Assembly (NCBI GenBank): GCA_038087875.1
Contig: CM075989.1
Span: 23,190,001-23,254,000 of the forward strand
DNA: 64,000 nucleotides
Direction of reading: 5' to 3'
From: Malacoraja senta
Taxonomy: Eukaryota
This document shows, one piece after another, positions 20,501-23,500 of this stretch; positions within the stretch are counted from its first letter, which is position 1; each line of letters starts with the position of its first letter. The position numbers and the translations under genes were made by a program. Below the pieces are notes generated by a model. It was not told the DNA's origin and made no database searches. It saw nothing but the letters and a program-made list of their open reading frames with translations.

Positions 20501-23500
20501 TGATGTTTCAGATTGAGACCCTTCTTCAGTCTTGACCCGAAACTTCACCCTATCCGTGTTCTCCAGAGTTGCTGCCTGACTTGCTGAGGTACTCCAGCAC
20601 TTTGTGTCACTGTTGTGTATTAACCAGCAACTTCTTCTTCTTGTCGAGTCCACACACAAGATTAGAAGTTGTTCAGCCAGAGCTGAACACACTTCTTGGC
20701 ATCTGCATACAATGGTGTCTGTCTTGTCGCTTCTTGTGTGTGGTGGTGGAAAGATTGGTGGAAACAGGGCCGCGACGGGAACGCTCTTTCCTTGGCCCCA
20801 ACCAGCTACTGCAATTCATTGTTTCTAGGTTAAAACTATATGATATTGATGAGTTTTTTCCCCAATATTTTAGTTGTTAATCATTTAGAATACATTGCCT
20901 GAAAGGGCTGTAAAAGCAGGTCAAACAGTAACTTAAGGGCCTGTCCCACTTGGCGATCTTTTCCGGCGACTGCCGGCATCATTGACTGACGTATCAGATC
21001 ACCGAAAAATACGCGGCGTGATGACGTATGACACGGCGGTGTTTTTTCAAGTGTCGCAACATTTTTTTGTCGCCGCTGGATTGTGAAATGTTCAAAATCT
21101 TTTGGCGACACTGATATGATGCCGGCAGTCGCCGAATAAATTGTGGGAGAAGAAAATAGTTAGCGGGTCGTTGGGAAAGAGCAAAGGGGGTGATTCCAAT
21201 TGTGTTCTTGCTGAATCGTGGCTTTGTGATCCCAGAGAGATTTCCCCACCCCCAACCCCATCCCCTCTCTCCCCACCCCCAAAAATGCTTTAAATTAAAA
21301 TAATTAAAATTCAGGAAGCAAGCACCGAATTTAAAGTGTAACGTTATTCAATACCACACTATGCAACTGGATCCTGGATTTCCTTTCTGAAAGACCCGTC
21401 TGTGCGGGTGGGGAAGAACACCTCCTCGGTCATCACGCTGAGCACCGGCTCCCCTCAGGGCTGTGTCCTGAGTCCGCTGCTCTTCACATTGATGACACAT
21501 GACTGTGTCGCCAAGTCCACTACTAACCATATCATCAAATACGCGGATGACACAACAGTAGTGGGCCTCATCCGCAACAACGACGACCAGGCATACAGAG
21601 AGGAGGTGGAGCAGCTGGTGAGCTGGTGCAGCAGGAACAACCTTCTCCTAAATGTGGACAAAACCAAGGAGATTGTCGTCGACTTCAGAAAGAAAAATCA
21701 GCCCAGTCACACTCCGCTGTGCATCAACAACTTAGCAGTGGAGCAGGTGAAAAGCATCAAGTTCCTGGGTGTGCATATAACGGATACCTTAACTTGGCTA
21801 CAAACATCACATCTCTGGTACAACGGGCACAGCAGCGTTTGTACTTCCTCCGCAGGATGAGAAGATCACACCTCCACCCTCCCATCCGCACCACATTCTA
21901 CAGAAGCACCATTGAATCAGTCATGACCAGCTGCATCTCTGTGTGGTGCGGTGGTTGTACAGCTGCGGACTGGAAGTGCCTTCAGAGAGTGGTGAGGACA
22001 GCGGAAAAAATCATTGGGACTTCTCTTCCTTCCATCATGGACATTGGTTACAAACGCTGTCTGACAAGAGCTAAGGGCATTACCAGAGCCCCCACACACC
22101 CACAATATGGTCTGTTTACACTGCTGAACTCTGGGAGGAGGTACGGACAACCAGGTTCTGCAACAGCTTCATCCCCCAGGCCATAAGATTATTGAACTCG
22201 CAGTCAAACCAATGCAAAAAACTTTCTTGTACATTGCCACTTTTAAAAACTTTCCTTTTTTAACTATGCACATGAAGCACTTTTTATGGACACACTAAGC
22301 ACTTTTACTGATCGCTGTTACTTTGAAGAGTCAATGCAACAAAATTTTGTTCAATGTGCACTGTGTCTATGTGTATACCTGAATGACAATTAAAGTTATA
22401 TTCATTCATTCATATTCATTCATTCATTCATATTCATTCATTCGTTATGCAGCTTGTTTGATCTGCCTTGTGAATAATTGATAGATTGTTAGATGCTAAA
22501 GCCTTTTGTTGCTGGAGACAAAATTTTTTGGAGAAACTCAGCGGGTGAGGCAGCATCTATGGGGAGAAGGAATAGGCGAAGTTTCGGGTTGAGTCGCCTA
22601 TTCCTTCTCTATCGACCCGAAACGTCGCCTATTCCTTCTCTCCATAGATGCTGCCTCACCCGCTGAGTTTCTCCAGCATTTTTTGTCTACCCTCGATTGT
22701 TCCAGCATCTGCAGTTCTTTCTTCAACACTTTTGTTGCTGTGTTCCTTTAGCTTAATGAAGACCTGTGGAACTCCAATTCCAAGGGAGATGTCTCAGCAT
22801 TGAAGGAACAATTGGATGAATTGACCCAGGTAAGTGTGGTTTTGCAACAATTAATTAATTTAGTTTGAGGTACAGTGAAAAGCTTTTGTTGCATGCTAAC
22901 CAGTCAGCGGAAAGGCAATACATGATTACAATATTATTACAATACATGATTATAATCGAGCCATCCAAAATTATTACAATCGATAAAATCCAGATGATCA
23001 GAGAGTGGTCCTGACCTATTATCTACCTTGTTGAAGACCCTGGGACTATATTTTATCGGCCTTTATCTTGCACTAAATGTTATTCCCGCTATCTTGTAAT
23101 TGTCCACTGTGGACGGCTTGATTGTGAGCATGACCAGTCTTTTTGCTGACTGGACAGCACACAACAAAAAAGCTTTTAATTGTACTTTGGGACACATGCA
23201 AATAATAATCTAAACTAATTCCTTGCACTTCTGCAGGGTTTCAATCATTGCCTGGTTTAAATTGGAGACTGTTCTATTGCGGTTGTGTTAATATTCTGTT
23301 GTCTTGGAAACACCTGTGGATTTCTAAAGTTCCTTAAGGGCCTGCCCCACCTACGCGATTTTTTTTCGGCGACTTGCCGGCACCCGTCATAGTCGCGGCA
23401 GGTCCCCGAAAATGTTCAACATGTTGAAAATCCAGAGGTGACCAGAAAAAGGTATGACTCTTTGGGCGACTACTCACGACCATACAGGCGACATGTCGCG

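Follow-up and report, generated by a model that had tools for sequence, protein, structure and literature searches.

We analysed 64,000 nucleotides of the Malacoraja senta genome (assembly GCA_038087875.1, contig CM075989.1, positions 23,190,001 to 23,254,000), hereafter the window, whose own coordinates are used throughout. On its minus strand, at 20633-20799, lies a 167-nt element with a ribozyme-like head and a (GAA)n tail. It belongs to a dispersed family, here called family B, which from its sequence is likely a non-autonomous derivative of a Vingi-type long interspersed nuclear element (LINE). The element is bounded by an 11-bp target-site duplication (TSD; no strand assigned) whose 3′ copy (20622-20632) and 5′ copy (20800-20810), the latter abutting the first nucleotide of the element, G1, differ by one mismatch. 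A preliminary description of this DNA had reported a TSD-flanked, GAA-tailed element of about 167 bp; this is borne out, the quoted head, tail and stems being read on the minus strand. The insertion host is another short repeat, which B interrupts at 20633-20799. Copies of this host repeat served as a proxy for the empty site: 48 rows matched the left flank and 16 showed the target motif, two of them being this locus, and the other 14 all carried the target stretch once with no insert.

A search of the window's own genome (1.94 Gb), to which all genome-wide counts below refer, gave 1,658 candidate B copies, and the 40 that were scored showed 95-100% identity. TSDs were found for 26 of the top 30 copies compared to 1 of 30 shifted controls. 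Among 63 distinct full copies, preselected for an intact head, 51 carried TSDs of 9-15 bp, and in 46 of these 51 the 5′ end lay at most 1 nt from G1. The base preceding G1 is T in 40 of the 63 full copies and many B TSDs start with A or AG, overlapping the GAA tail, which suggests either a target preference or priming by microhomology. A single B insertion is also carried within a larger duplicated segment on at least eight small contigs (L151-L158).

We examined one poly(A) RNA run, in which B-family reads came from both strands with no peak of starts or ends; these data are unsuited to the cleavage question. A contig from another organism that crosses a B 5′ junction was set aside, as its 22 letters inside B are too few to count.

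The head of family B fits an HDV-like ribozyme

The first 52 nt of the element (20748-20799, minus strand, as for all parts of the element given below) fit a descriptor of ribozymes like that of hepatitis delta virus (HDV), of the CPEB3 type, with cleavage predicted directly before G1 (20799). The 6-nt 5′ strand of P1 (20794-20799) pairs with 20766-20771 and includes the G1·U wobble; J1/2 is 2 nt long; and the 7-nt 5′ strand of P2 (20785-20791) pairs with 20748-20754. A 3-bp P3 closed by the 7-nt loop L3 occupies 20772-20784, a GU junction followed by a 5-nt loop (20759-20765) stands in place of P4, which is absent, and the J4/2 strand CCAA (20755-20758) provides the predicted catalytic C at 20758, a role assigned by analogy with the HDV family (PMC10879173). 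The order and lengths of P1, P2 and P3 thus satisfy the nested double pseudoknot of the strict descriptor, and the marks of the HDV family, namely the G1·U wobble and the catalytic-type C and downstream A of J4/2, are all present.

The strict descriptor has three matches in the window (B and two copies of a second family, A) and no match in any of 10 shuffles. By itself, the loose loop motif occurs nine times in the window against 8.8 expected, no excess over chance. Energy folding of B gave a z score of -2.84, the pseudoknot being outside what energy minimisation can model.

Next we examined the head across the family, using 128 distinct B heads partly gathered by exact-match head patterns. 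The predicted catalytic C is kept in 126 of the 128, and is invariant across 12 natural heads from six families. The sole common variant at a non-CpG position, found in 27 of the 128 copies, falls within the 5-nt loop. The preliminary description had P1 as only 6 bp in this copy; the consensus of the genome-wide copies has 6 bp as the family-wide state. It had also held that the L3, GU and C.AA motifs are kept, and they are indeed present in B, but the UUCCCGU that it quoted for L3 is not typical of the family: position 22 is A in 125 of 128 heads, so that the family L3 reads UUCACGU and the A-to-C at 20778 is a private change of the window copy.

HDV-like ribozymes have a P1 of 6-7 bp and a P2 of about 7 bp (PMC4908430). 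The P1 of R2 ribozymes is 6 or 7 bp, and their P4 is sometimes missing, such P4-less forms being able to cleave (PMC3774820); in minimal HDV-like ribozymes, which also cleave, a short loop replaces P4 and the catalytic C leads J4/2 (PMC10879173). G1 is described as important at the cleavage site (PMC8233481). The B head is predicted to self-cleave as an HDV-like ribozyme before G1.

Stem covariation across related heads

In the 12 natural heads, 88.6% of stem cells pair and 11 of 17 pairs vary on both sides. None of 500 shuffles was as high on both measures and slid controls gave 1-4 pairs, while a third measure, further pair types, was as high as in the real heads in 103 of 500 shuffles. In P2, six of the seven pairs vary on both sides between families; P1 is weakest (79% pairing), because several old copies are eroded at their 5′ ends. 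As the heads are related by descent, these are counts and not probabilities. Selection on the fold, which the preliminary description had read from the covariation, is supported for the autonomous LINE lineages, from which the covariation is inherited; it says nothing about cleavage of this copy.

Vingi-like LINE lineages and family A

A search with a distant relative, in which 147 hits were scored, brought out more LINE lineages, to which we gave the letters C, D, E, F, G, K and M. In lineage C, an intact open reading frame (ORF) of 1002 aa matches PF03372/PF14529, the apurinic endonuclease (APE), and PF00078, the reverse transcriptase (RT), whereas a scan to an E of 0.1 shows no family of RNase H. 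Since Vingi elements are defined by a single compact ORF with APE and RT and no RNase H (PMC13708176), lineage C fits that definition. Database relatives, 120 of which were listed without clade names, are mostly about 1000 aa long with APE and RT families. Relatives in the PDB are L1, R2 and group II-type RTs; matches in the PDB and Atlas are generic RT/APE and give no clade name. Several Vingi-like copies, L243:431-3439 (minus strand) among them, have near full-length open frames of 986-1029 aa, so that lineage C, and perhaps D, may be recently active.

Lineages A, C, F and M start with heads of the same type, as does L296, a short derivative of G; the survey covered these, the complete 5′ ends of D, E and K lying outside the stretches examined. 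The lineage M head is partial in L365, and head family J is the head of lineage M. At least five Vingi-like lineages in this genome begin with such candidate ribozyme heads. The preliminary description had proposed at least two lineages of ribozyme-bearing short interspersed nuclear elements (SINEs): B is indeed a second independent head family, but it is not a SINE, and the lineages number at least five. The same head was seen by eye at the 5′ ends of Vingi-2_Gav, Vingi-4_Crp and Vingi-1_BF (gharial, crocodile and lancelet) and in an internal stretch of a sea-urchin Vingi (PMC5786205, supplement). Vingi is not among the six ribozyme-bearing clades listed in the accessible part of that paper.

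P4 is present in lineage C and in head families H, I and J. These last three are older, low-copy and carry a full P4 (H, L294, L296, L298, L304 and L307; I, L287, L291 and L295; J, L297, L300, L306 and L308). In L296, one TSD encloses an H head together with a 3′ end of lineage G. Two lineage C copies, L243 (minus, ~3510-3620) and L244 (minus, ~3460-3615), have four and six tandem 26-nt units in the head, each unit comprising the end of P1, J1/2, the P2 5′ strand, P3 and L3; the unit is single in other C copies, and the frames of L243 and L244 are long.

Family A numbers 1,837 candidates genome-wide, with a TSD in 30 of 30 copies. Its two copies in the window, at 48098-48240 and 7837-8195 (both minus strand), match the strict descriptor, the second having a body interrupted by another inserted short repeat. 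An exclusion pattern uncovered a shared, longer 3′ sequence and led to the parent LINE of A, L180:1867-4666, which is 2.8 kb long with an A head at its start, an A-like end, an 11-bp TSD and a broken endonuclease/RT coding sequence. Family A aligns to this LINE at its ends only: it derives from a Vingi-like LINE by internal deletion. P4 is missing from the autonomous A LINE as well. In two B copies (L046 and G000:C18:3860586) an A copy is nested at the local hairpin of B, so A was still mobile after some B insertions.

Family B as a probable bipartite Vingi derivative

The 5′ end of B is of the head type of the local lineages and, by eye, of the named Vingi elements (PMC5786205), and its 3′ end matches the end of a Vingi-like ORF, the 3′ untranslated region (UTR) and a microsatellite tail. 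At 20662-20706 (overlapping a local hairpin at 20665-20694) B keeps a putative remnant of the last ~14 codons of the ORF and its stop (20662-20664). Anchored at this stop, the B peptide has a score against five lineages that one shuffled body in 5000 attains and that, of the 2,914 peptides of the window, none but the B peptide itself attains. The peptide is in register at the stop with C, D, E and K, with A-x-x-C-V-x-x-W, four residues and the stop shared with C and K; against the other lineages it scores 0 (G), -10 (F) and -18 (A). A comparison of the three frames of B with the C-termini of 122 proteins gave nothing distinctive, and only the stop-anchored test gave a signal. Downstream, the terminal motif ACTCGA and a short GAA tail (20633-20649) form an end of the Vingi LINE type; in lineages C, D, E, F, K and M the GAA tail likewise follows ACTCGA or a closely similar motif.

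We also considered a SINE transcribed by RNA polymerase III and rejected it, with no tRNA gene at the element and no tRNA-, 7SL- or 5S-type Rfam family at E up to 10. Collectively, the two ends make B likely to be a bipartite non-autonomous Vingi LINE derivative of the same build as A.

The two ends can pair with each other

A 12-nt arm at 20732-20743 and a second in the 3′ UTR at 20650-20661 form an inverted repeat, the end-to-end stem, with 12 of 12 positions complementary and a predicted stability of -20.4 kcal/mol. Across lineages, a 9-12-bp arm right after P2 pairs with a stretch right before the terminal motif, in full-length LINEs over a spacing of about 3 kb. Per 1000 shuffles, this stability is reached by 1 for B, 1 for the short A elements, 0 for C, 32 for F, 4 for M and 11 for G. 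Furthermore, in all six families the 3′ arm pairs best with the 5′ arm of its own family.

B has subfamilies that are distinguished by indels, 1 nt and 9-10 nt in length, of a repeated ACAAGAAGC-like unit beyond the 5′ arm (L061-L090 and others), and one has a 2-nt insertion within the 3′ arm.

Relation to the CPEB3 ribozyme

CPEB3 is a mammalian memory gene, and the ribozyme in its intron is the Rfam family nearest to the B head: in a permissive search the window copy matched RF00622 best, at 28.1 bits (E 1.4e-5; cut-off 35). B itself is a dispersed multicopy element and not the fixed intronic CPEB3 locus. Some copies of B selected by the model exceed the cut-off (for example L303 at 43.7 and L309 at 37.4 bits). 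In a genome search with RF00622, 59 candidates were scored and 51 of them matched, 39 above the cut-off. The top matches are mostly lineage C heads (maximum 64.2 bits), most of them followed by an ORF. Head family H (five copies) reached 43-51 bits in the four copies rescanned, decay notwithstanding, and its majority sequence equals the Rfam CPEB3 consensus at 58 of 67 positions by eye, both P4 strands included; H is the head group nearest the mammalian consensus. Also by eye, Vingi-2_Gav differs from the Rfam consensus at 2 of 54 positions, the P4 interior excluded, and L372, a lineage F 5′ end, has P2 strands equal to the consensus and a different P1.

HDV-like ribozymes share only about six invariant nucleotides (PMC8256844), so identity within stems that covary freely favours descent for the likeness between CPEB3 and Vingi. 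As the head is conserved across Vingi, what the likeness indicates is the clade rather than this host. A relic of Vingi, X12_LINE, is present in the human genome (PMC5753468). HDV-like ribozymes have been proposed to spread by retrotransposition, and CPEB3-related sequences are described in sea urchin, lamprey and lancelet (PMC8256844). These comparisons suggest that the mammalian CPEB3 ribozyme could be a domesticated Vingi 5′ end. More broadly, we lean towards a view in which the Vingi clade carries CPEB3-type HDV-like heads together with a covarying 5′-3′ stem, the CPEB3 ribozyme derives from such an end, and B is a pared-down mobile form (52 nt, with a 6-bp P1 and without P4) that would be among the smallest such ribozymes in animal genomes.

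A Vingi ribozyme and a Vingi origin of the CPEB3 ribozyme are apparently unrecorded so far: neither link was found in the literature searched, which left most subscription journals, Repbase notes and patents outside. The accessible parts of PMC8233481, PMC10919898 and PMC7761336 give no source element for the CPEB3 ribozyme, and in the first of these the words "transpos" and "origin" are absent. The ribozyme remarks in the available portion of PMC13708176 concern R2.

Proposed mechanism and alternatives

We consider it quite probable that B is a deletion-born Vingi mini-element whose head cuts before G1, whose end-to-end stem presents the 3′ motif and tail, and which a Vingi protein copies in trans. 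The starting points of this model are direct observations: the repeat and its TSDs, the 5′ ends at G1, the HDV-fitting head, the coding remnant, the 3′ motif and the paired arms. For cleavage, the function of the stem and mobilisation in trans we draw on the HDV family and on the precedent of L1Tc/NARTc (PMC3383444). A parent Vingi would first have lost most of its ORF by internal deletion, retaining the 5′ ~70-90 nt and the 3′ 75-90 nt. A B copy would then be transcribed within a longer host transcript or via an internal promoter, and its head would fold as a nested double pseudoknot in which cleavage before G1 by the J4/2 cytosine releases an RNA of unit length. The end-to-end stem would place the 3′ motif and tail beside the head for the endonuclease/RT protein, and target-primed reverse transcription would insert the copy with a TSD of 9-15 bp.

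Several observations weigh against this model. The B copies were chosen by their intact heads, so that the precision of their 5′ ends is partly selected, and an internal promoter would also yield precise 5′ ends at G1. B unites both reductions, a 6-bp P1 and the loss of P4. At curated cut-offs Rfam finds no family in the window, and the B heads scored directly fall below the RF00622 cut-off of 35 (28.1 bits in the window, 33.1 in L018). The decayed A LINE copy L180 fails the arm test, 631 of 1000 shuffles being as stable, and for the 5′ arms of C, F and G a foreign 3′ arm is a slightly better partner than their own. The partner LINEs are placed in Vingi, as a probable assignment, by the domain content of their ORF. 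Finally, five pattern searches returned only B subfamilies, truncations and duplications and no autonomous B parent; they covered 100 of 101 rows (30 loci inspected), 97 rows, the first 100 of 556 (all on contig C1), 33 and 33, and each pattern could miss a diverged parent. Nor is the end of B among the 3′ ends of the ~70 of 147 LINE rows inspected (two loci twice). Eight parent candidates turned out to be B copies in duplicated segments. The parent of B may be scarce, strongly changed or extinct, and a sister lineage may be what moves B.

The alternative that survives best, though we regard it as unlikely, is that B is a Vingi derivative with weak or no cleavage, its head being kept as a promoter within the element, as a fold that protects the 5′ end or as a site bound by the Vingi protein, and its 5′ ends being set by the transcription start. 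The head of L1Tc/NARTc acts both as a ribozyme and as a promoter (PMC3383444), B is short of one P1 pair and the whole of P4 when set against C, H, I and J, and Vingi heads keep their stem sequence from lancelet to crocodilians, beyond what catalysis with about six invariant nucleotides needs (PMC8256844). Yet B has kept G1·U, L3, the GU junction and both the C and the A of J4/2, P1 was shortened on both strands with its pairing preserved, and the lack of P4 is shared with the autonomous A LINE and with R2 ribozymes that cleave (PMC3774820).

We think it much less probable that B, as a chimera or as a ribozyme SINE of independent origin, uses RTE-type or other LINE machinery and did not arise by deletion from one Vingi. 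Besides the missing parent with both B ends, its ends look mixed, with a 3′ motif like D, a peptide like C and K and arms like G, and RTE likewise has a single APE-RT ORF and forms bipartite derivatives (PMC5786205; PMC13708176). Against this, the head, the coding remnant and the terminal motif are all Vingi-type, and the arms are complementary at every position, as the ends of one parent should be. We give almost no credence to a chance pattern in an ordinary short repeat, because, although the loose motif is no more frequent than expected by chance and energy minimisation misses a pseudoknot that it cannot model, the strict descriptor is empty in all 10 shuffles, the Rfam E value is low, the stems covary and the head begins exactly at the first base of the element.

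Other open frames

Open frames at 21342-21860, 42233-43800 and 58186-58740 of the window presumably represent fragments of the RTs of other retroelements. Among the duplicated segments that carry B, L156 has a 319-aa open frame that by inspection we take to resemble a seven-transmembrane receptor.

Implications and comparison with known systems

If the mechanism proposed here is true, Vingi joins the LINE clades with 5′ self-cleaving ribozymes, the CPEB3 ribozyme gains a concrete and testable source, and the spawning of bipartite mini-elements by Vingi, left open in the accessible part of PMC5786205, would be accounted for. Vingi-1_Acar is under development for gene writing with a donor RNA that has both UTRs (PMC13708176); a ribozyme head and an end-to-end stem would bear on how these UTRs work, and families A and B would be natural minimal templates.

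Both ribozyme-headed non-autonomous LINE derivatives (NARTc in PMC3383444; PMC6765202) and bipartite Vingi derivatives (PMC5786205) are already in print. The latter, such as those of Vingi-1_EE, and SINE2-1_AMi keep, like B, nothing of a Vingi LINE but its 5′ and 3′ ends (PMC5786205); B differs from them in having no tRNA head, a 6-bp P1, no P4 and no parent found. NARTc of Trypanosoma cruzi is likewise a short non-autonomous partner, of the Ingi-clade LINE L1Tc, with a 5′ HDV-like ribozyme and a 3′ end common with the LINE, cleavage before +1 and TSDs of 11-12 nt (PMC3383444). It has a 77-nt head with P4, a poly(A) tail, an RNase H-bearing LINE and in vitro activity (PMC3383444), whereas B is 167 nt long and has a GAA tail and a head of 52 nt whose activity is predicted.

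The CPEB3 ribozyme (RF00622) matches B in P3, L3, the GU junction and G1·U, the alignment spanning the model except P4, and related full-length heads score 43-64 bits; it is intronic and conserved in mammals with a 7-bp P1 and a P4, whereas the head of B is mobile, occurs in many copies and scores under the cut-off. Minimal HDV-like and theta ribozymes share with B the short loop in place of P4 and the catalytic C at the first position of J4/2, but come from metagenomes and gut phages, often near tRNAs (PMC10879173), and B is an animal retroposon. R2 elements also begin with an HDV-like ribozyme with a P1 of 6 or 7 bp and at times no P4 (PMC3774820), and non-autonomous deletion derivatives of R2 exist (PMC3414825). 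R2 is specific to ribosomal DNA, uses a restriction-like endonuclease (RLE) and has a long J1/2, whereas B is dispersed, has a 2-nt J1/2 and would depend on an APE-type partner.
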